Origin: a virus
IMG/VR virus record: IMGVR_UViG_3300025732_000017
Direction: 5' to 3' (one strand)
DNA: 64,000 nucleotides
Made by a program: the position numbers and the translations under genes. This document shows, one piece after another, positions 2,231-43,781 of the stretch. Numbering within the stretch: the first letter of the stretch is position 1; each line of letters starts with the position of its first letter. The notes beneath the pieces are model-generated. The model worked only from the letters and a program-made list of their open reading frames with translations, was not told where the DNA came from and ran no database searches.

Positions 2231-5200
2231 ATGGCATTACTTAAAGACGGCACGCGAATATTTGGTACGTTGAATGTAAACACCGAAATTGTGGTAAGCA
2301 ATACATCTATTCTTGCTACAGTAAATAGTGTTTTTATTCTTGCGAATAATACAAATACAATCACAATTTCTTCATTTTCAAAAGCAAACTCCGCCTTTGA
2401 TATTGGCAATGCTGCGTTTAATCAAGCAAACACATCTTATAATGTTTCAAATTCAGCTTTTGACAAGGCAAATGTATCGACCAGCATTGCAAGCGCAGCT
2501 TTTAACGCTGCCAATTCGGCATCCGGCGGTAGCATAACTGATGCATATGATCAAGCAAATACGGCAAGAAATCAAGCCAACGCGGCATATGATGCCGCAA
2601 ATAATTTTAGCGCAATAACATCATCATCTTTCGACAAGGCAAATAGCGCAATCACAGTTGCAATATCATCATATGATTATGCAAATACCAGATTATCAGC
2701 CAATGGTGGTACAATATTTGGTAGTTTGATTGTTTCTGGTAATCTTACTATTTCTGGAAATACAGTATTCAATAATGTTCAATCATATAGAATTGATGAC
2801 CCATTAATTTATCTTGCAGCGAACAACTATACAGCAGATCTAGTAGATATAGGATTTATTGCAAATTATGTAAATACGACAGGATCTAATGTTCATACTG
2901 GTTTGATGCGTGATGCCGGATCTAAAGAATACTATCTATTTCAGGGATACGATCAAGAACCCCAAAATAATCATATAGATCCTTCAGGTAATAATTTTAC
3001 GATTGCATTCCTAAATGCAAATGTTCGTTCAACTAATATTATATTAAATGGAATAAATGTTTCTAGTATATTGATATCTTCATATGATCAAGCAAACATA
3101 GCAAGATCACATGCAAATGCTGCTTTTGTAAATTCAAACTCTTCTGGTATAATTGCTTCAGCATCATTTGATCAGGCTAATGTATCAAGAACACACGCCA
3201 ATGGTGCATTTGGTCAAGCCAACGTAACTGCTGCCATAGCAAACGCGGCATTTGATAAGGCCAATTTAGCGTCAACAATTGCATCCGCATCATATGATCA
3301 AGCAAATACAGCTTCGTTAGCATTTAATAAAGCAAATGATTCATCTTTAATTTCTTCTTCCGCATTTAATCAAGCCAATACCGCAAGAGATCAATCAAAC
3401 ACTTTTTCAATTGTTGCTCAAGCAGCATTTAATCAAGCAAATACTGATCTTTTAATTGCTAATCTTGCGTTCGATAAAGCAAATAGTGCAAGTGTTATAA
3501 GTAGTGCTGCATTTGGTCAAGCCAATACGGCAACAGATAACGCCGCAGGTTCATTAATTGTTGCCATAGCTGCTTTTGACAAAGCAAATCTGGCTTCGGC
3601 TAATGCGGGTACCGAATTAGCAACTGCAGCGTACAATCAAGCCAATACTGCAAGATTACACGCCAATGGTGCATTTGCAAATGCAAATAGTGCTGGAATT
3701 ATTGCGTCGGCAGCTTTTGATGCTGCTAATGCTGCTGGTTCATCTGCTACAGTTGCTGCAGCATTTGATAAAGCAAATAGTGCAAATATTATTGCGTCGG
3801 CAGCTTTTGATGCTGCTAATGCTGCTGGTTCATCTGCTACAGTTGCTGCAGCATTTGATAAAGCAAATAGTGCAAATATTATTGCGTCTAATGCATATGA
3901 TAAAGCAAATACGGTCAATACAACTGCAGATTCGGCTTATGCACAATCAAATACTGCAAGATCACACGCCAATGGTGCATTTGCAAATGCAAATAGTGCT
4001 GGAATTATTGCGTCGGCAGCTTTTGATGCAGCCAATACTTCATCAACAATTGCATATGCATCATTTGATCAGGCTAATGTATCAAGATCACACGCGAATG
4101 GTGCATTTGGTCAAGCCAATGTAACTGCTGCCATAGCAAACGCGGCATTTGATAAATCTAACGCAGCATCCACGATAGGATCAGCCGCATTTGATCAAGC
4201 AAATACAGCCAGAAATTTAGCAAATACGTCTACTGTTAATGGCGGTGCGTCATTTGATCAAGCAAATACGGCAAGAGATCAAGCAAATGCTGCATCCACG
4301 ATAGGATCAGCCGCATTTGATCAAGCAAATACAGCAAGAACACACGCCAATGGTGCATTTGGTCAAGCCAACGTAACTGCTGCCATAGCAAATGCTGCAT
4401 TTGACAAGGCTAATTCTGGATCAACAATTGCATCTGCATCATTCGATCAAGCAAATACAGCAAGAGATTTGGCAAATACATCGACAGTAAATGGTGGTGC
4501 ATCATATGATCAGGCTAATACAGCCAGAGATCAAGCCAATACAGCAAGAACACATGCAAACTCAGCATTTGACAAGGCTAATTCTGGGTCAACAATTTCA
4601 TCTGCATCATATGATCAAGCAAATACAGCAAGAACACATGCTAATGGTGCATTTGGTCAAGCCAATGTAACTGCTGCCATAGCAAATGCAGCATTTGATC
4701 AAGCCAACACAGCTAGAACACAAGCCAACACAGCTAGAACACATGCCAATGGTGCATTTGGTCAAGCCAATGTAACTGCTGCTATAGCAAACGCGGCATT
4801 TAACAAAGCCAATACTGCAAATACAATTGCTGTCTTGGCATATGATCATGCTAATATAAAATTAAATATTAGCGGTGGCATAATTACTGGCGATTTAACT
4901 GTTTCTGGTAATCTTACTATTTCTGGAAATACAGTATTCAACAACGTTACGACGTATCGCATTGATGATCCATTAATTTATCTTGCGGCAAACAACTATA
5001 CAGCAGATCTAGTAGATATAGGATTTATTGCAAATTATGTAAATACGACAGGATCTAATGTTCATACTGGTTTGATGCGTGATGCTGGATCCAAGGAATA
5101 TTATCTATTTTTTGGATATGATAAAGAACCAGAAAACAATCATATAGATCCTAATGCAAACAATTTTACCATTGCATTCCTAAATGCAAATGTTCGTTCA

Positions 5201-6031
5201 ACTAATATCATACTTAATAATACACCAGTATCAAGTTGGATAAAATCATCATATGATCAAGCAAATACGGCAAGAGATTTAGGAAATACATCTACTATAA
5301 ACGGTGGTGCATCATACGATCAAGCAAATACAGCAAGAACACACGCCAATGGTGCATTTGGTCAAGCCAATGTAACTGCTGCTATAGCAAATGCAGCATT
5401 TGATAAGGCCAATTTAGCGTCAACAATTGCATCTGCATCATTTGATCAAGCAAATACAGCAAGAACACATGCTAATGGTGCATTTGGTCAAGCCAATGTA
5501 ACTGCTGCTATAGCAAACGCGGCATTTGATAAGGCTAATTCTGGATCAACAATTGCATCTGCATCATACGATCAAGCAAATACAGCAAGAACACACGCCA
5601 ATGGTGCATTTGGTCAAGCCAATCTAGCATTTGATCGTGCAAATACGGCTAATCTACTTCCAGTTCAGAAGTCGGGTACTATAATTGGAACTAGAAATGC
5701 CCTAAACTTTATTGAAGGCGGAAATGTAACGTTAACGATTACTGATGATAGTATCGGCAATAGGATCAATGTTACAGTAGCAGCTGCCGGTGGTGGCGGA
5801 ACTTCTACAAATTCTGTCGTGTTTATTTCGGATACGGCACCAAGTGATGTTGCAAACGGAACACTATGGTGGAATTCAGATGATGGCTCACTATATATTA
5901 AATATCCAGATAGTAATAGCACTCAATGGGTTGTTACGTCTTCTGGTGGTGATGGTGGTGGCGGTAGCAGTGGTGGCGGTGGAGTCACTACAGGTAAAGC
6001 AATAGCAATGGCAATAGTTTTCGGAGGATAA
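2231..6031 (+). CDS. Long tail-fibre-like protein (1266 aa) with Ala/Asn coiled-coil repeats
   Basis: Many AFDQANTAR and AFGQANVTAAIANA repeats, two copies of a beta-rich SGNLTISGNTV...IDDPLIYLA domain, a NGTLWWNSDDGSLYI module, and a C-terminal TTGKAIAMAIVFGG. Confidence 0.8.
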   Translation: MALLKDGTRIFGTLNVNTEIVVSNTSILATVNSVFILANNTNTITISSFSKANSAFDIGNAAFNQANTSYNVSNSAFDKANVSTSIASAAFNAANSASGGSITDAYDQANTARNQANAAYDAANNFSAITSSSFDKANSAITVAISSYDYANTRLSANGGTIFGSLIVSGNLTISGNTVFNNVQSYRIDDPLIYLAANNYTADLVDIGFIANYVNTTGSNVHTGLMRDAGSKEYYLFQGYDQEPQNNHIDPSGNNFTIAFLNANVRSTNIILNGINVSSILISSYDQANIARSHANAAFVNSNSSGIIASASFDQANVSRTHANGAFGQANVTAAIANAAFDKANLASTIASASYDQANTASLAFNKANDSSLISSSAFNQANTARDQSNTFSIVAQAAFNQANTDLLIANLAFDKANSASVISSAAFGQANTATDNAAGSLIVAIAAFDKANLASANAGTELATAAYNQANTARLHANGAFANANSAGIIASAAFDAANAAGSSATVAAAFDKANSANIIASAAFDAANAAGSSATVAAAFDKANSANIIASNAYDKANTVNTTADSAYAQSNTARSHANGAFANANSAGIIASAAFDAANTSSTIAYASFDQANVSRSHANGAFGQANVTAAIANAAFDKSNAASTIGSAAFDQANTARNLANTSTVNGGASFDQANTARDQANAASTIGSAAFDQANTARTHANGAFGQANVTAAIANAAFDKANSGSTIASASFDQANTARDLANTSTVNGGASYDQANTARDQANTARTHANSAFDKANSGSTISSASYDQANTARTHANGAFGQANVTAAIANAAFDQANTARTQANTARTHANGAFGQANVTAAIANAAFNKANTANTIAVLAYDHANIKLNISGGIITGDLTVSGNLTISGNTVFNNVTTYRIDDPLIYLAANNYTADLVDIGFIANYVNTTGSNVHTGLMRDAGSKEYYLFFGYDKEPENNHIDPNANNFTIAFLNANVRSTNIILNNTPVSSWIKSSYDQANTARDLGNTSTINGGASYDQANTARTHANGAFGQANVTAAIANAAFDKANLASTIASASFDQANTARTHANGAFGQANVTAAIANAAFDKANSGSTIASASYDQANTARTHANGAFGQANLAFDRANTANLLPVQKSGTIIGTRNALNFIEGGNVTLTITDDSIGNRINVTVAAAGGGGTSTNSVVFISDTAPSDVANGTLWWNSDDGSLYIKYPDSNSTQWVVTSSGGDGGGGSSGGGGVTTGKAIAMAIVFGG
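2731..3040 (+). repeat. Copy 1 of a ~310-bp internal duplication (copy 2 at 4900-5209)
   Basis: Near-identical DNA starting tgtttctggtaatcttactatttctggaaatacagtattcaa; offset 2169 bp. Confidence 0.9.
3701..3888 (+). repeat. Exact 90-bp tandem duplication (two copies plus a partial third)
   Basis: attgcgtcggcagcttttgatgctgctaat... starts at 3701 and 3791; a partial copy starts at 3881. Confidence 0.95.
4900..5209 (+). repeat. Copy 2 of the ~310-bp internal duplication
   Basis: Matches 2731-3040 over long exact stretches. Confidence 0.9.
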
Positions 6032-33151: not shown

Positions 33152-34215
33152 AGATTGCCATCATCAACGATACTCATGCAGGCGCAAGAAATGACTCTCT
33201 TGCGTTTGATGATTATTTTTTTCGTTTTTGGGATAATGTTTTCTTTCCATACTTGAAAGAGAATAATATCACCACTGTGTTTCATCTTGGCGATATCGTT
33301 GATCGGCGCAAGTTCATCAATTATGTGATTCTCAATCGCTGGAGAAACAAGTTCTTTGGTCGCATGAAAGACATGGATCTCAAGCTGCATGTCTTGGTGG
33401 GAAATCACGATGTGCCATACAAGAACACGAACGACATCAATGCGATTGAAGAATTGTTTGAACAGAATGAATACATTCAAGTTTATAAAGAACCGCGCGA
33501 CATAGTTGTCGATGGTGTTGAGATTTGTTTATTGCCATGGATCAATGTCGAGAATCATCAGAGAACAGTTGAGCATATCAAGTCCAGTAGAGCACAGATA
33601 GCATTTGGGCATCTGGAGATTGCTGGATTTGAAATGGATCGTGGTAATATTTGCCATGATGGCATGAGTCGTTCCGTGTTCGACAAGTTTGAAACTGTAT
33701 TGTCTGGTCATTTTCATCACAAGTCATCAGATGGTCATATCACATATCTCGGAAATCAATATCAAATGACATGGGCAGACTATGGTGACAAGCGTGGCTT
33801 TCATGTGTTTGATACAAACACCAGAGAGTTGTCATTTGTAGAAAATCCATATCAGATGTTCTACAAGATATCATATGACGACAAGAGTGATTTGGACTTT
33901 GATAAGTTGAAGACGATTGATTTTTCACAATATTCTGGAACATATGTGAAAGTATTGGTGCTAAACAAGACCAATCCATTTCTATTTGAGAGATTCATGC
34001 AGAAGTTGACTGATGCTGCACCATTGGACATAAGCATCGTGGAAGACTTTTCCGAATTGACAAATGGTGCTGATGACGATATAATAAATGAAGGTGAAGA
34101 TACGATGACCATACTAGACAAGTATGTAGACGGTCTTCAAATGGAATCATCGGACAAACTCAAGTCTATTCTTAGAGAGTTGTATCTTGAAGCGGTAAAT
34201 TTGGAAAAAGTATGA
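33148..34215 (+). CDS. gp47: Recombination nuclease subunit (Mre11/SbcD-like)
   Basis: DTHAG, HLGDIVDRR, VGNHD and SGHFH metallophosphoesterase motifs. Confidence 0.95.
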   Translation: MKIAIINDTHAGARNDSLAFDDYFFRFWDNVFFPYLKENNITTVFHLGDIVDRRKFINYVILNRWRNKFFGRMKDMDLKLHVLVGNHDVPYKNTNDINAIEELFEQNEYIQVYKEPRDIVVDGVEICLLPWINVENHQRTVEHIKSSRAQIAFGHLEIAGFEMDRGNICHDGMSRSVFDKFETVLSGHFHHKSSDGHITYLGNQYQMTWADYGDKRGFHVFDTNTRELSFVENPYQMFYKISYDDKSDLDFDKLKTIDFSQYSGTYVKVLVLNKTNPFLFERFMQKLTDAAPLDISIVEDFSELTNGADDDIINEGEDTMTILDKYVDGLQMESSDKLKSILRELYLEAVNLEKV

Positions 34216-36857: not shown

Positions 36858-37050
36858 TTGGAGATACTGGGAGAAGCATGACATGAAAGATAGTGAGTTT
36901 CTTTTTTGGTTGAGAGATAGACTCATCAATGTCTACGGTGAAGATCCACATATCGACTATGTTCAAAAACTATATTCCATAGCCAGAAAAGTGGAAGATG
37001 ATGAGAACTATTGGAATAGAGTAATAGATAGTTCTAGACAAACAGACTAA
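36844..37050 (+). CDS. Hypothetical protein
   Basis: 68-aa aromatic-rich ORF overlapping def. Confidence 0.55.
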   Translation: MLESDWRYWEKHDMKDSEFLFWLRDRLINVYGEDPHIDYVQKLYSIARKVEDDENYWNRVIDSSRQTD

Positions 37051-37084
37051 ATCATGTTATGATTGTTTTTTATCATAGGATATC

Positions 37085-38320
37085 GTGATGTACCAAAAAT
37101 ATACCGTTGATGATGTAAAGAAGTCTTCCGCTCGTAAATTGTTCAATGTGATTTCCACGTTTGCTGGCGGCGGTGGCTCTTCTACTGGATATCGTCTTGC
37201 TGGTGGTAATATCATCGCAATCAATGAATTCGTTGAAGAAGCAATCAAGACATACTCAACGAACTTTCCTGACACCAAGATCATACCCGGCGACATCAAG
37301 AAATTGACTGCAAAAGACTTTCTTGATACAGCTGGACTCAAGCCTGGCGAACTTGATATTCTTGATGGATCTCCACCGTGTTCAGCATTCTCTGTTGCAG
37401 GTAAGCGCGAGAAGGGTTGGGCTGGACATGTCACAGATACACGCAAGTCATACTTTGACGATGATGGTAATATCATTGAAGAAGGCGAACTTCTTGTTCA
37501 AGAAGGTATCAAGAAGTACTCTGATGGCAAGACCGTAGAAGCCATTGAAGATCTATTTTTGGAATTCATTCGTATCGCAAAAGAGATCAAGCCAAAGGTA
37601 ATCGTTGCCGAGAACGTCAAAGGCATCACGTTTGGTGAAGCCAAAAGCAAACTATATGAGTTTGTCAATTCGTTTGAAAAGATTGGATATCAAGTTACAT
37701 ATCAGGTATTGAATGCAGCAGATTTTGGTGTGCCACAAGCAAGAGAGCGTACTCTATTTGTCTGCATACGCGAAGATGTATGTGATGCAATTGGCTTGAA
37801 CTTCCTCAATATTCACTCTACTGTTTTTCCTAATGCAACATATGCAAAGCACATATCTTTGCGCGAGGCAATTGAAGACATAGAGAATGATCCGAACGAA
37901 TTGCAGGAACTCTATGACTATGTGCAAAATGGCTTTCAAAAAGATTGGATCACGAAACTACCTTTCAATCCAACAAGACATACAAAGCCATCGGACAAGG
38001 AATTTCGCGATTGGAATCCCAAGGCATCATGCTTCAACATGATTCGCCCATGTCCAGATCTTCCGTCTCCAACTTTGACTCAGCGCGGACAACAGAAGTC
38101 CGTATCTGGCGTGTTTCACTATGCCGAGAATAGAAAGTTCACGATCAAGGAATTGAAGCGTATCATGAGTCTACCCGAAGACTTTGTTCTTACAGGCACG
38201 TTTGATCAACAGGCTGAGAGAATTGGACGCATGGTTGCACCAAAGATGATGGCTGCTCTTGCAGGTAGCATCTATGAAAATGTTTTGAAGCCATATAATG
38301 ATAGCCAAGTTACTAAGTGA
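37085..38320 (+). CDS. C5-cytosine DNA methyltransferase homologue, probable carboxymethyltransferase (likely ATG at 37088)
   Basis: Motif I FAGGGG, motif IV GSPPC, motif VI ENV, motif VIII QARER. Motif X reads GRMV instead of GNAV/GNSV. Confidence 0.88.
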   Translation: MMYQKYTVDDVKKSSARKLFNVISTFAGGGGSSTGYRLAGGNIIAINEFVEEAIKTYSTNFPDTKIIPGDIKKLTAKDFLDTAGLKPGELDILDGSPPCSAFSVAGKREKGWAGHVTDTRKSYFDDDGNIIEEGELLVQEGIKKYSDGKTVEAIEDLFLEFIRIAKEIKPKVIVAENVKGITFGEAKSKLYEFVNSFEKIGYQVTYQVLNAADFGVPQARERTLFVCIREDVCDAIGLNFLNIHSTVFPNATYAKHISLREAIEDIENDPNELQELYDYVQNGFQKDWITKLPFNPTRHTKPSDKEFRDWNPKASCFNMIRPCPDLPSPTLTQRGQQKSVSGVFHYAENRKFTIKELKRIMSLPEDFVLTGTFDQQAERIGRMVAPKMMAALAGSIYENVLKPYNDSQVTK

Positions 38321-39089
38321 AGAAATAGAAAAAGCATCAAACGATATCAACGTCGCTGTACTTTTGTCTGGCGGCGTTGATAGCATTTCTGTGGCATTAG
38401 CAGCACATCGTGTTGGTAAGAAGATTACTGCATACACGTTTCATCTAAAAGACCAGCCGACATATGATGCAAGTAAAGCACAAGAAATAAGTAAGATCAT
38501 GGGTTGGTCGTGCAAGACGATTGAAATTCCTGTTGACAATGTTATACGGGATTTCATTCGCCTTCGTCGTGAAGTAGATTGTCAGAAGAAGACACACTAT
38601 GAATGCTGCTTTCCTTTTCTATATGTCTATCCGCAAATAGAAGAGAAAGAAGTGCTTAGTGGATGGGCTGCCGATGGTTACTATGGCGTATCCAAGAAAG
38701 CCAATCTACACTACAAGCATACGATGGAAAAGTTCAACGAATTTCGTGAAGATTATTTTCTGCTTGATCACTGTGCTGGCTATCTTTGGCACAAGAGGAT
38801 TGCTGATATGCACAACAAGATCTTTATCACACCATATCTAACCGAGCCAGTAAAACAGTTTTTTTGGACCAAAGACTGGTATGAATTGAATCAGCCATTT
38901 CAGAAACACCATGTAGTAGAAGCATTTGATGAATTTTCTAGATTTGGTGCCGTAAAGAAACACATCAATCTGCAATTGGGCTCAGGTGTTGACAAACTGT
39001 TTGAATCTGTTATAATACCTGACAAGACGATCAACTATCGTAATAGAAAACGCATCATGGATATTTGCAAGGATTGGAGAAATAGATGA
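38298..39089 (+). CDS. Asparagine-synthetase-like PP-loop ATP-dependent ligase without a glutaminase domain
   Basis: VLLSGGVDS PP-loop, VLSGWAADGYYG (compare SGEGADE) and FITPYL motifs; only 263 aa. Confidence 0.75.
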   Translation: MIAKLLSEEIEKASNDINVAVLLSGGVDSISVALAAHRVGKKITAYTFHLKDQPTYDASKAQEISKIMGWSCKTIEIPVDNVIRDFIRLRREVDCQKKTHYECCFPFLYVYPQIEEKEVLSGWAADGYYGVSKKANLHYKHTMEKFNEFREDYFLLDHCAGYLWHKRIADMHNKIFITPYLTEPVKQFFWTKDWYELNQPFQKHHVVEAFDEFSRFGAVKKHINLQLGSGVDKLFESVIIPDKTINYRNRKRIMDICKDWRNR

Positions 39090-39772
39090 CACAAAAATTT
39101 ACATTTGCCCAGCGCGAAGAGGGTTTTGACAATCACATTAGCCAGTCCATTCGCGGATACAACGACTTGATTGGTGATGTCATCAATCTCTCGCAGTATT
39201 TTGTAGAGAACGATACTGTCGTCTATGATATCGGCTGTTCAACTGGCAAGATGCTTCGTGCAATGATTGGTCAGAACGAGAAAATTGCACCTCGTGCCAA
39301 TTATGTAGGAATTGAGATTGAAGAAGATTTCTTCAAGTTCTTTGATGAGAATGTTCAGAGTAATTTGGAGTTCATTCGGAATGATGTGCGTGATGTAAGT
39401 TTTGCTGTCAATACATCTTTGATCACTTCTATTTTCACTCTTCAGTTCATGCCCAGACAAGATCGTCAGGATGTCATCAATCAAATCTATAACTGTTTGA
39501 TTCCCGGTGGGGCGTTCATCTTTGCCGAGAAGACGATTGGCAACAATCCGATGATTCATGAGATGCGTACATTCACCTACTATGATTTCAAGAAACTCAG
39601 TTTCACCTATGACGATATCATGACGAAGGAAAAGAAACTGCGTTCCATGTTGAAGTCCAATAGTCGTCAGGAATTGATTGAAATGTGTGAGATTGCTGGA
39701 TTCAATCCCAATTCAATTGATTCGTTCTGGCAAAACTTTGCGTTTACTGGATTCATTGCAATCAAGAACTGA
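39086..39772 (+). CDS. cmoA: CmoA-like carboxy-SAM synthase / class I SAM enzyme
   Basis: Collinear with E. coli CmoA as I recall its sequence: FTF..REEGFDNHISQSIRGY, VYDIGCSTG, IFTLQFM, LIPGGAFIFAEK, YDFKK, AGF...FWQNFAF.GFIAIK. Confidence 0.8.
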   Translation: MTQKFTFAQREEGFDNHISQSIRGYNDLIGDVINLSQYFVENDTVVYDIGCSTGKMLRAMIGQNEKIAPRANYVGIEIEEDFFKFFDENVQSNLEFIRNDVRDVSFAVNTSLITSIFTLQFMPRQDRQDVINQIYNCLIPGGAFIFAEKTIGNNPMIHEMRTFTYYDFKKLSFTYDDIMTKEKKLRSMLKSNSRQELIEMCEIAGFNPNSIDSFWQNFAFTGFIAIKN

Positions 39773-39875: not shown

Positions 39876-42134
39876 ATGATCGAGAAAAAGACACCCACCA
39901 TTCACCGGGAAGCCAAGTCACAGCTTGCGCGTCTCATGGCCAACGAGAACCTCACGGTCGAGCATCGTGCAGTTCGTACAGCGTCCTTCGACACGAATAA
40001 TCGTGTTCTGACGCTTCCAATCTGGACTGACATGACTGGCGATATCTATGATACGCTGGTTGGTCACGAGGTTGGACATGCGCTGGATACTCCAGCGGGT
40101 GTCGATGCCATTCTTTCCGCAATCAAGGCGATTGACGCCAACAACATGCATGGCGCCAAGATGTTCCTCAATGTGGTTGAGGATGCTCGCATTGAAAAGA
40201 TGGTGCGTCGTCGTTATCCTGGTATGCGTCGTTCCTTCTCTCTCGGCTACAAGCAGCTGTTGGATCGGAACTTCTTTGGCACGATTGGTCGTGACCTGAA
40301 GACGTACAAGCTGATTGACCGCGTCAATCTGTACTTCAAGCTGGGTTCGGCTGCGATCATTGACTTCTCTCCCAAGGAGATGGAGTTGGTTCGCATGGTT
40401 GACAACAGCGAATCCTTTGAGGACGTTGTCGCCGCAGCCAAGGCGCTCTATCAATATGCCAAGGATCATAAGGAAGACCAGCCTGATCAGGACGGCGATC
40501 AGGACGAAGACTATGACATGTATCCGGATGACGACGGAAACTATTACATGGAGAGCGAGTCTTCTGACGAAAATGACGAGGAGGATGAGTCTGACGACGA
40601 GACTGGTTCTCCTTCCGATCGGGACGATGAGGACGACGAGTCCATGTCCAAGTCCGAGGCTGAAGATGGTGAGGATGGGTCCGATGATGAGGACTCAGAT
40701 TCTGAGGATGCCTCTGACTCTGAGGATGAGCCGATTGATGATGTAGGCACTTCGGAAAACAATCCGACTTCCGAGACTCAGGAGTCTTGGGAAAACCAGA
40801 AGGACAAGCTGCTCTCTGGTGCGGTTCGCGGTTACCTTTACTGCAACATTCCCGAGATTGATGGTCATAATTGGATTGTGCCTTACAAGCAGATCCATTA
40901 TGGAAATGGTAAGACTGGCGAGGGGCGCATCGACGGCCTGTCTACGGTTGTTCAAGCGGAAGGCTGGAATGGTCTTCGTGGTCCGAACGAGGCCGAGCGT
41001 TTTGCCATGCTCAACAAGTTCAAGAGCGAAAATGCACCCATCATTTCCTTCATGGTGAAGGAGTTTGAAATGCGTAAGGCTGCTGAGCAGTATGCTCGTC
41101 AGTCTATCGCCAAGACTGGCGTGATCAACACCAACAAACTCCATACCTACAAGTACAATGACGATATCTTCCGTCGCATCACCAATGTGCCGACTGGCAA
41201 GAATCATGGTCTTGTTCTTATTCTGGATTGGTCTGGTTCCATGGGTCAGCAGATTACGGGCACCATTGAGCAGCTTCTGAACATGGCACTCTTCTGCCGT
41301 CGTGTCCAGATTCCGTTTGAGGTGTTTGCATTCAGCGATGGTTATCACCCGCATCCTGAAGGGGCAAGTAATTTCAAGTATGATAATGGCGATATGATGA
41401 TCACCTATGGACTCTCGCTTCTTCAGCTTCTGTCCTCTACCATGAAGCCGAAGGAACTCAATGATGCCATGGGCAATCTTCTCGCTCTTGGAGAAAACTT
41501 CAGGCCGGGTAATCGCAATACTCGTCCCATGGGGTACTTCCATCTCAATGGAACTCCGCTTGATGGTGCGTTGCTTTGCCTTCCGAGCATCGTGAATGCT
41601 TTCCGCAAGCGTAACAAGCTGCAGATCGTCAATACGATCATCCTTACCGATGGTGAGAATTCCTATAGTCCCGAGATCAATGACAAGGAATATGCCCGTT
41701 GGGGTAATAAGGTTCTTGTGGTTCGCGACAAGGTGACCAAGGCTGAGTATACCTGTTCTATGCATGGTGGTGAAGAACTTACCAAGATTCTCCTCAAGAA
41801 CCTTGAGGATCGTACCAATGCAAACGTCATTGGTTACTATCTGGTCAGTGGATCTTCTCGTACCCTGAGGCAGGCTATTAGTCCGTATTTTCCTGACGAT
41901 ATTGAGAATGCGTTCAATAAGTTCAATGAAAAGAGGTACGTGGAGATCACCAGTAGGGGTTACACCTACTACTATGTGATCAAGGGTAACAATCTTCAGA
42001 TTGAAACTGAGGAGCTGGATATCGGTCGTGCAACTTCTGCCAAGGCTATTGCCAAGGCATTTGGAAAGTACTCCAAGAACAAGTTGGACAATCGTGTCAT
42101 GCTTTCCAGGTTCATTGAAAAGATTTCGGCTTGA
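39876..42134 (+). CDS. vWA/MIDAS-domain protein with an N-terminal HExxH metallopeptidase-like domain and acidic linker (CobT-like)
   Basis: HEVGH motif, NVVEDARIE, a long D/E tract, MIDAS LDWSGSM, GTPL and ILTDGE. Confidence 0.85.
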   Translation: MIEKKTPTIHREAKSQLARLMANENLTVEHRAVRTASFDTNNRVLTLPIWTDMTGDIYDTLVGHEVGHALDTPAGVDAILSAIKAIDANNMHGAKMFLNVVEDARIEKMVRRRYPGMRRSFSLGYKQLLDRNFFGTIGRDLKTYKLIDRVNLYFKLGSAAIIDFSPKEMELVRMVDNSESFEDVVAAAKALYQYAKDHKEDQPDQDGDQDEDYDMYPDDDGNYYMESESSDENDEEDESDDETGSPSDRDDEDDESMSKSEAEDGEDGSDDEDSDSEDASDSEDEPIDDVGTSENNPTSETQESWENQKDKLLSGAVRGYLYCNIPEIDGHNWIVPYKQIHYGNGKTGEGRIDGLSTVVQAEGWNGLRGPNEAERFAMLNKFKSENAPIISFMVKEFEMRKAAEQYARQSIAKTGVINTNKLHTYKYNDDIFRRITNVPTGKNHGLVLILDWSGSMGQQITGTIEQLLNMALFCRRVQIPFEVFAFSDGYHPHPEGASNFKYDNGDMMITYGLSLLQLLSSTMKPKELNDAMGNLLALGENFRPGNRNTRPMGYFHLNGTPLDGALLCLPSIVNAFRKRNKLQIVNTIILTDGENSYSPEINDKEYARWGNKVLVVRDKVTKAEYTCSMHGGEELTKILLKNLEDRTNANVIGYYLVSGSSRTLRQAISPYFPDDIENAFNKFNEKRYVEITSRGYTYYYVIKGNNLQIETEELDIGRATSAKAIAKAFGKYSKNKLDNRVMLSRFIEKISA

Positions 42135-42159
42135 CATTCCCAATCTTGTATTGTATTCT
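42131..42159 (+). promoter_or_regulatory. sigma70-type promoter TTGACA-17-TATTCT
   Basis: Upstream of the AAA ATPase gene. Confidence 0.75.
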
Positions 42160-42184
42160 TAGATCATAACCTGAGAGGAAATAA

Positions 42185-43396
42185 ATGTCTCTGACCAACA
42201 AGCAGATTGCCTTCATCAAGCTGGCAAACGCAAACGGTTTTACCAGCACGATTTCCCGCAAGGACGCAAAGGCGCTTTGCAAGGCTAATGACTTCAAGTG
42301 GCCGCGATGGATTGCGATTGACGACCAGTATCGTCACGCTCGCGGCGTCTATAGGCTTCCCAAGATTGATAGTGAGGTAAGTGTGCCTAAGGTTTCTCGG
42401 ATTGATACGCCCGTGCAGCAGGCTCCTGCACCGACCATGAATCTTCAGGTTCTTGGTACGAATGTGGCGGAATCGCTCATTCCAATGCCCAATCGCAAGT
42501 ATGTGCCATTTGGCAACTTTGCCGATGTTGAGGCTATCATTTCTTCCACTCTATTCTATCCGATCTATGTCACGGGTCTGTCTGGCAACGGCAAGACCAT
42601 GATGATTGAGCAGGTCTGTGCCAAGGCTCGGCGCGAGATGGTTCGCGTCAATATCACGGCCGAGACTGACGAAGACGATCTTATCGGCGGCTTCCGTCTG
42701 ATTGATGGTCAGACCGTGTGGCATAATGGTCCTGTGGTCATGGCCATGGAGCGTGGTGCTGTACTGCTCCTGGACGAGGTTGACCTTGGTTCAATTAAGC
42801 TGATGTGCCTTCAGCCCGTGCTTGAGGGTAAGCCGATCTTCATCAAAAAGATCAACAAGCTGGTTCAGCCTGCCAAGGGCTTCACGGTTGTTGCTACTGC
42901 AAACACCAAGGGTAAGGGTTCAGACGATGGTCGCTTCATTGGCACCAACGTGATGAACGAGGCTTTCCTTGAGCGTTTTTCCATCACCCTTGAGCAGGAG
43001 TATCCGCCTGCTGTAACCGAGAAGAAGATCCTTCTCAACATCCTGGATCGCTCTGCGGACAATGACAAGGAGTTTGCCGAGCTGCTTATCAAGTGGGCAG
43101 AGGCAATTCGCCGCACCTATTATGATGGTGGTGTGACCGAGATCATTTCCACTCGTCGTTTGGTGCATATCTGCGAGGCGTATAACATCTTCTCCAAGGA
43201 TCGCAAGAAGGCGATTCAGCTCTGTCTCAATCGGTTTGATGCGGACACCAAGAATTCGTTCATGGATCTGTATACCAAGATTGATGCTGAGGTCAATCCT
43301 CCTGTGGTTGCTGCGCCTGGCACCGACAGCCCGACTGTTCAGGCTGAGATGTCGCTTGAGGACAAGATCAAGGCGGCTGACGAAATTCCCTTCTGA
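42185..43396 (+). CDS. MoxR/CobS-like AAA+ ATPase
   Basis: GLSGNGKT, DLIGG, LLLDEVD, ATANTKG and NEAFLERF motifs; adjacent to the vWA gene. Confidence 0.9.
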   Translation: MSLTNKQIAFIKLANANGFTSTISRKDAKALCKANDFKWPRWIAIDDQYRHARGVYRLPKIDSEVSVPKVSRIDTPVQQAPAPTMNLQVLGTNVAESLIPMPNRKYVPFGNFADVEAIISSTLFYPIYVTGLSGNGKTMMIEQVCAKARREMVRVNITAETDEDDLIGGFRLIDGQTVWHNGPVVMAMERGAVLLLDEVDLGSIKLMCLQPVLEGKPIFIKKINKLVQPAKGFTVVATANTKGKGSDDGRFIGTNVMNEAFLERFSITLEQEYPPAVTEKKILLNILDRSADNDKEFAELLIKWAEAIRRTYYDGGVTEIISTRRLVHICEAYNIFSKDRKKAIQLCLNRFDADTKNSFMDLYTKIDAEVNPPVVAAPGTDSPTVQAEMSLEDKIKAADEIPF

Positions 43397-43403
43397 AAAT
43401 ACT

Positions 43404-43432
43404 TGACATTCCATTTCAACATTGATATAATG
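43404..43432 (+). promoter_or_regulatory. Perfect sigma70 consensus promoter TTGACA-17-TATAAT
   Basis: Exact -35 and -10 hexamers with a 17-bp spacer. Confidence 0.9.
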
Positions 43433-43511
43433 TTGAATAATGGAGCGACGTTCTTGGTTGCTCGTCACTCCGTTTCTCTCTAGTGCAACCTTTTGTTATG
43501 GAGTAAAATAT

Positions 43512-43781
43512 ATGGCTAAGATCTCTGCTAAGACTCGTATGCTTCAGGCTCTCAAGGGCAATGGCGCATACAACACCTTCTCGGTTGCTCAGGGTCGCAA
43601 TCGTTTCGGTGTGACGAATGTTTCAGCTCGTATCGCTGAGCTGCGTCAGGATGGTCATTCCATCTATACGAACGTTCGTCGTCGTGGCGATGGCAGCAAG
43701 GTCCGCGTCTATCGTCTTGGCACTCCGACCAAGGCCATGAAGGCTGCGGCTCGCAAGACGAAGACTCGTCGTTCTGCCTGA
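43512..43781 (+). CDS. Small basic winged-helix-like DNA-binding protein (89 aa from the ATG at 43512)
   Basis: GGAG RBS before 43512; NVSARIAELRQDGHSIYT...YRLG HTH-wing pattern and a Lys/Arg tail. Confidence 0.65.
   Translation: MAKISAKTRMLQALKGNGAYNTFSVAQGRNRFGVTNVSARIAELRQDGHSIYTNVRRRGDGSKVRVYRLGTPTKAMKAAARKTKTRRSA

Follow-up and report, generated by a model that had tools for sequence, protein, structure and literature searches.

A predicted CmoY-type amide ligase gene between cmoX and cmoA in an uncultured T4-like phage

The window, a 64,000-nucleotide stretch of a 142,041-bp viral record from IMG/VR, contains three consecutive, overlapping genes on one strand, with two promoter-like matches. 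The features of this cassette are as follows:

37035..37063, plus strand: match to a sigma-70-like promoter, TAGACA-17-TATGAT, 5' of cmoX (consensus scan only, 10/12)
37085..38320, plus strand: cmoX, homologue of C5-cytosine DNA carboxymethyltransferase (PF00145, E 5.9e-58; SPPC and motif-X Arg)
38298..39089, plus strand: predicted cmoY-type ATP-dependent amide ligase, 263 aa, an AsnB-like synthetase domain alone (SpCmoY homology, fold)
38361..38384, plus strand: PP-loop LLSGGVDS, residues 22-29, an ATP pyrophosphatase motif read off the translation
38664..38666, plus strand: codon of W123, aligned to Tyr348 of beta-lactam synthetase (HMM alignment to 1JGT; subgroup compositions)
38989..39016, plus strand: perfect TTGACA-16-TATAAT within the 3' end of cmoY, ~70 nt ahead of cmoA
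39086..39772, plus strand: cmoA, homologue of carboxy-SAM synthase (TIGR00740 at E 6.2e-28, below the equivalog cut-off; 46% identity to SpCmoA)

The probable start of cmoX is the ATG at 37088. The end of cmoX overlaps the start of cmoY by 23 nt, the TGA of cmoY overlaps the ATG of cmoA as ATGA, and the three genes are translationally coupled. Perfect TTGACA-N16-18-TATAAT sites occur five times in the window, always on the plus strand, compared with 0.16 expected from shuffled sequences; those outside the cassette lie at 34057, 43403, 49590 and 63765. Since the site in the 3' end of cmoY is preserved in three of four close IMG/VR relatives, cmoA may have an early promoter of its own.

The cassette is embedded in a T4-like region for replication and recombination, with uvsY, uvsW, gp55, gp47/46 and peptide deformylase (PDF) genes on its 5' side and a gene for a CobT-like protein of 752 aa, a CobS-like AAA gene, dNMP kinase, gp45 and gp44 on its 3' side. 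The CobT-like (phrog_459) and CobS-like genes directly 3' of cmoA (39876-43781) are richer in G+C than the remaining window (~49% versus ~38%). The sliding clamp shares only ~40-42% identity with its counterparts in cyanophages and Pelagibacter phage HTVC008M; the source is an uncultured, distant T4-like virus. At the nucleotide level the cassette matched nothing among cultured phage genomes, and matches there came from protein-level comparison. The GpC observed/expected ratio of 1.16, which reveals no depletion, is uninformative on CmoX specificity.

The CmoX homologue has both the SPPC motif and the motif-X Arg (ERIGRMV). Among PDB entries it matches the SpCmoX crystal structure 8YF3 best (E 1.2e-110). 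It also contains additional residues right after SPPC (37403-37519, residues ~107-145), with 58 residues between conserved anchors versus 19 in SpCmoX; this is the catalytic-loop region of the C5-methyltransferase (MTase) fold.

The protein encoded between these two genes matches the Pfam Asn_synthase domain at residues 5-150 (E 5.3e-12, 46.5 bits versus a cut-off of 21), with weaker, sub-threshold matches to QueC, tRNA_Me_trans and NAD_synthase. An AlphaFold2 model built with 52 homologues as input has a mean pLDDT of 94.3 and a pTM of 0.90. In this model, residues 1-263 superpose on residues 225-484 of the beta-lactam synthetase chain (Z 23.4), 233-523 of human ASNS (Z 23.1) and 210-503 of E. 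coli AsnB (Z 20.2), and the superposition with carbapenam synthetase reaches Z 21.9; PP-loop enzymes outside the AsnB group score at most 11.3, compared with 17-23 within it. Because the regions aligned in AsnB, beta-lactam synthetase and ASNS are their C-terminal synthetase domains only, the modeled protein is a complete AsnB-type synthetase domain that lacks the Ntn glutaminase domain. Searched in six frames, the complete record (142,041 bp) yielded no GATase_7 domain and no Asn_synthase gene other than this one. All of these results bear out the first-pass annotation, which had read from the sequence a PP-loop SGGVDS in an AsnB-like core, the lack of an N-terminal Ntn glutaminase domain, and a gene wedged between a methyltransferase gene and cmoA.

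The catalytic core appears intact. The window protein has every residue whose column reaches at least 90% conservation among 122 family representatives, namely S24, G26, D28, S29, D57, K98, E102, G122, D126, R150, K203 and Q226, among which the PP-loop residues S24, G26, D28 and S29 are 95-99% conserved. Its feature neighbours in the ESM Atlas are other viral and archaeal Asn_synthase proteins without a glutaminase. Assignments to other families were considered and rejected. Asparagine synthetase B (TIGR01536) is matched with 45.7 bits versus a cut-off of 267.1, over model positions 250-369 only and with no glutaminase domain. The scores for QueC (27.0), LarE (26.6), NadE (23.3) and MnmA (19.2) fall below the curated cut-offs of 150.3, 150, 255 and 284, respectively. 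A profile search of residues 120-263 against solved structures, aimed at the counterparts of Glu382 and Lys443 of beta-lactam synthetase, returned a single chance-level match, to SOX-18 (E 0.62), and residue-by-residue equivalence to solved structures is established up to position 126 only.

A pathway with the same three components was published in December 2025 for Synechococcus phage S-B43 (Yang et al., Nat Commun 2025; PMC12783734). In this phage CmoA produces carboxy-SAM, and CmoX converts cytosines at GC sites to 5-carboxymethylcytosine (5cxmC), with Arg350 touching the carboxyl group; CmoY (SpCmoY), a glutaminase-less homologue of asparagine synthetase, ligates glycine to 5cxmC in DNA (PMC12783734). 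The SpCmoY reaction needs ATP and glycine in vitro and acts on double-stranded DNA; it also works in E. coli, and its product was found in virion DNA (PMC12783734). The authors also modelled SpCmoY together with 5cxmC-AMP and glycine (PMC12783734). The same authors clustered 2,251 CmoX-associated ligases, mined from viral metagenomes including IMG/VR, at a threshold of E 1e-56 (about 30% identity); the largest cluster includes SpCmoY and is said to retain the glycine-carboxylate-binding residues (PMC12783734).

All three proteins of the window are homologous to those of S-B43. Over 99% of its length CmoY shares 51% identity with SpCmoY (273 bits, E 3e-97), CmoA is 46% identical to SpCmoA (E 8e-72) and CmoX is 49% identical to SpCmoX (E 7e-130). 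Among cultured phage genomes searched in translation, those of S-B43, S-B05 and RB11-B match CmoY best (51.1% identity, 99% coverage), and the S-B43 gene at 147774-148589 is SpCmoY, as checked against the coordinates in the source data of PMC12783734. In reciprocal searches each of the two proteins is among the other's matches. As E 3e-97 lies far beyond the published threshold, the window protein would fall in the SpCmoY cluster by a wide margin, and since the authors mined IMG/VR and the window record is of this type, the gene is probably already in their network. Thus, judged by homology, the pathway is not new and the window gene joins the published CmoY family.

The family is large, with 481 clusters at 90% identity (E <= 1e-5), 630 clusters at 50% identity (E <= 1e-3) and 463 loci in IMG/VR. 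Within the best 80 of these 463 loci, cmoX and cmoA adjoin cmoY in 17; adjacent genes are ordered X-Y-A, with PDF upstream as in the window, or Y-X-A. In 62 of the best 80 loci (L011-L081) cmoY is detached from the cmoX-cmoA pair. In the one such locus with annotated surroundings (L012), the lone gene (5001-5810) directly follows that of the gp43 DNA polymerase, and uvsX and gp41 come next. In all three long records (157 kb, 30 kb and 31 kb) the cmoX-cmoA pair is located 10-17 kb upstream of the lone cmoY. The other lone-cmoY records, fragments with a completeness of 4-29%, say nothing about a distant pair; likewise, whole-record searches of 39 further lone-cmoY records from IMG/VR, uninformative fragments that are 4-21% complete, yielded no cmoA.

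An exhaustive search of metagenomic proteins identified natural fusions of the two enzymes in both orders, MTase-ligase (P0238 and P0302) and ligase-MTase (P0242, P0262 and P0260), and the SPPC motif and the motif-X Arg are present in all four fusions that have a complete MTase part. These fusions and the co-occurrence of the genes even at a distance of ~17 kb are new support for a functional link between CmoX and CmoY. In one further protein, P0294, a CmoY-like domain is joined to a weak match to the UDG superfamily (22.2 bits, below the cut-off). The 142-kb record encodes no protein with a ParB_N domain, which is carried by many CmoX contigs (PMC12783734).

Residue-by-residue comparisons of 83 and then 274 CmoY sequences allow us to distinguish two subgroups. 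The SpCmoY subgroup comprises 32 clusters that all share at least 64% identity with SpCmoY, and the majority, including the window protein, comprises 241 sequences. At 58 positions both subgroups have the identical residue with at least 95% conservation, among them the PP-loop, K97, K98, D126, K133, R150, K203, H222, R250, R252, D255 and D259. The subgroups differ at the following positions (SpCmoY subgroup, n=32; majority, n=241):

Position 123: I in 100% of the SpCmoY subgroup; W in 82% of the majority
Position 164: Q in 100% of the SpCmoY subgroup; W in 80% of the majority
Position 165: I or L in the SpCmoY subgroup; H in 81% of the majority
Position 174: varied in the SpCmoY subgroup, with I in 17/32; K in 97% of the majority
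Position 204: Q or N in the SpCmoY subgroup; H in 90% of the majority
Position 205: mostly I or V in the SpCmoY subgroup; H in 93% of the majority
Position 221: D or E in the SpCmoY subgroup; K in 69% of the majority
Position 260: Y in the SpCmoY subgroup; W in 99.6% of the majority

Residue 123, an Ile in the SpCmoY subgroup and a Trp in the window protein, aligns with Tyr348 of beta-lactam synthetase, a member of the Tyr348-Glu382 catalytic dyad of that enzyme; in E. coli AsnB this position holds Glu348. It covaries most with Y162, H165, C159 and W164, all in the segment 159-165. Positions 204 and 205 flank the invariant K203, and position 221 flanks the invariant H222. Across the 122 representatives of the wider family, the positions that differ between the subgroups are the most variable ones and the catalytic core is fixed. 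With the differences at 123, 164/165, 204/205 and 221 lying near catalytic residues, the amine pocket of the majority may not match the one in SpCmoY; possible contacts of these residues are the amine, the flipped base and the DNA.

In a quick maximum-likelihood tree, midpoint-rooted with the homologue from an Erwinia jumbo phage outermost, SpCmoY nests inside the family within the I123/Q164 subgroup, on a long branch (0.96 versus a median of 0.19), so that its residue signature looks derived. The window protein belongs to a clade of 21 rows that is sister to the SpCmoY clade (SH-aLRT 89; support below 95 is tentative).

The homology and fold of the protein, its conserved catalytic core, the structure of the operon, and the co-occurrence with CmoX and fusion to it together lead us to interpret the window gene as encoding, in all likelihood, a CmoY-type ligase that modifies 5cxmC in DNA. 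In the proposed pathway, CmoA would convert SAM and prephenate to carboxy-SAM, and CmoX would use it to add a carboxymethyl group to C5 of cytosines in the phage DNA. The 263-aa ligase would hold ATP at its PP-loop and adenylate the 5cxmC carboxylate in DNA, and the attack of an amine on the acyl-adenylate would give an amide. With free glycine as the amine the product would be 5-glycylcarboxymethylcytosine, which may shield the DNA from host nucleases.

For the window enzyme we infer the same activity and the same amine as for its S-B43 orthologue. We regard it as a CmoY-family enzyme for the second step of cytosine hypermodification and mildly favour glycine as its amine. The proposals of the first-pass annotation can be assessed on this ground. 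Its proposal that the enzyme activates the 5cxmC carboxyl and forms an amide gains support from full-length homology to SpCmoY and from the conserved linkage and fusion with CmoX, and the association with cmoA and the methyltransferase that it expected is found in 17/80 adjacent loci, in 3/3 long records and in the fusion proteins. Its conditional suggestion of a ligase family different from those already characterised is not supported, as this is the SpCmoY family (51% identity over 99% of the length). Membership in that family also makes 5-glycylcarboxymethylcytosine the expected product, a base that has already been described (PMC12783734) and not the undescribed one that had been considered possible. 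The amine donor, which it had listed as unknown, is glycine for the type member of the family, SpCmoY (PMC12783734); for the subgroup of the window it is the likeliest candidate.

The amine is also the point on which the most substantial alternative turns. The enzyme could perform the same chemistry on 5cxmC in DNA with another alpha-amino acid, with ammonia taken directly, or with a cationic amine such as a polyamine, and we consider this a tangible, if tentative, possibility. It would fit the subgroup-specific differences beside invariant catalytic residues: W123 versus I at the position of beta-lactam synthetase Tyr348, W164/H165 versus Q/I, H204/H205 versus Q/I adjoining the invariant K203, and K221 versus D/E, a charge reversal adjoining the invariant H222. 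The differing positions are also the most variable across the 122 representatives. Moreover, the majority signature occurs in no cultured phage of the phage collection, where the marine isolates matched are S-B43, S-B05 and RB11-B only. On the other hand, R250 and R252, the candidate carboxylate binders, do not vary at all between the subgroups, nor do the other basic residues; identity to SpCmoY reaches 51%, SpCmoY itself nests within the family, and the differing residues might touch the flipped base or the DNA instead of the amine. Nor was any gene for amine biosynthesis found linked to the cassette. The broader proposition, that the dominant uncultured subgroup with W123/W164/H165/K174/H204/H205/K221/W260, including the window protein, attaches an amine other than glycine, seems to us less likely than not.

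A substrate other than DNA, such as a nucleotide, a tRNA base (e.g., a cmo5U-type carboxyl) or a small metabolite adenylated by a PP-loop enzyme, appears improbable. The weak sub-threshold matches to QueC, LarE, NadE and MnmA could be read in this direction, but they score far under the curated cut-offs, and although cmoY is not adjacent to cmoX and cmoA in most of the related fragments, the longer records contain cmoX-cmoA elsewhere. In addition, the ligase is found fused to CmoX-type MTase domains, and the closest characterised homologue works on double-stranded DNA in vitro (PMC12783734). Nothing was found in favour of an inactive remnant without function, which is very improbable given an intact reading frame with all universally conserved core residues, hundreds of conserved homologues and a high-confidence structure model.

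The finding in the window is one more copy of the hypermodification pathway published in December 2025 (PMC12783734). As an annotation it implies that the DNA of this phage very probably contains amide-modified carboxymethylcytosine, a modification that matters for sequencing, cloning and restriction of phage DNA. The characterised enzyme SpCmoY represents a divergent minority subgroup, and the majority type differs from it beside the catalytic residues. If the majority uses another amine, many aquatic T4-like phages would carry an undescribed amide of 5cxmC, and SpCmoY would have a derived minority specificity. At stake is whether glycine is general among CmoY enzymes or whether there is a second natural cytosine amide.

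Among enzymes of known structure, AsnB (1CT9), ASNS (6GQ3), beta-lactam synthetase (1JGT, 1MC1) and carbapenam synthetase (CarA, 1Q15) share the fold and the PP-loop with the window protein. The synthetase domains of these class II amidotransferases match its model with Z 20-23 and rmsd 2.5-3.3 A over about 250 residues at an identity of 14-18% only. The acyl-adenylate mechanism is probably common to them and the window enzyme. Unlike these amidotransferases, the window protein lacks an N-terminal glutaminase domain; its predicted carboxylate substrate is a modified DNA base and not aspartate or a beta-amino acid, and it has a Trp at the position occupied by Glu348 in AsnB and Tyr348 in beta-lactam synthetase.

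The ligases of the A0A7T0Q3R0 cluster also associate with CmoA and CmoX and were proposed to amidate 5cxmC, but they retain a domain that hydrolyses glutamine, and ammonia is their proposed amine source (PMC12783734), whereas the window protein and its genome lack such a domain. The CmoY-like proteins of the Erwinia, Dickeya, Pseudomonas PaBG and Yersinia jumbo phages are full-length homologues but much more distant (29-34% identity, E 2e-41 at best to 4e-17), and their residues at the variable positions differ from those of the window protein. In Erwinia phage pEa_SNUABM_7, the sole jumbo-phage neighbourhood inspected, a cmoA homologue lies ~2.3 kb upstream of the ligase gene. Two additional genes (420 and 358 aa) are located between them (L091, MZ475896 12547-16506), and the PP-loop of this ligase is altered to S-S-G-L-D-G. 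In Synechococcus phage S-CRM01 cmoA adjoins cmoX (L092, HQ615693 115080-116917), and RN05-S has a cmoA match; as no CmoY-like gene was detected in either phage at E <= 1e-5, their DNA modification may stop at 5cxmC.

The closest known system is that of S-B43. SpCmoY (UniProt A0A514ABJ0, QDH50619; 271 aa) and the window protein (263 aa) both consist of the synthetase domain only, and have in common the PP-loop, the 58 near-invariant positions, the CmoX and CmoA partners and a T4-like phage as carrier. They differ in gene order, X-Y-A in the window versus A-Y-X in S-B43, and in neighbourhood, the PDF gene upstream and the CobT/CobS-like genes downstream being features of the window. Finally, they differ in the signature at positions 123/164/165/174/204/205/221/260, which reads W,W,H,K,H,H,K,W in the window protein and I,Q,I,I,Q,I,D,Y in SpCmoY.
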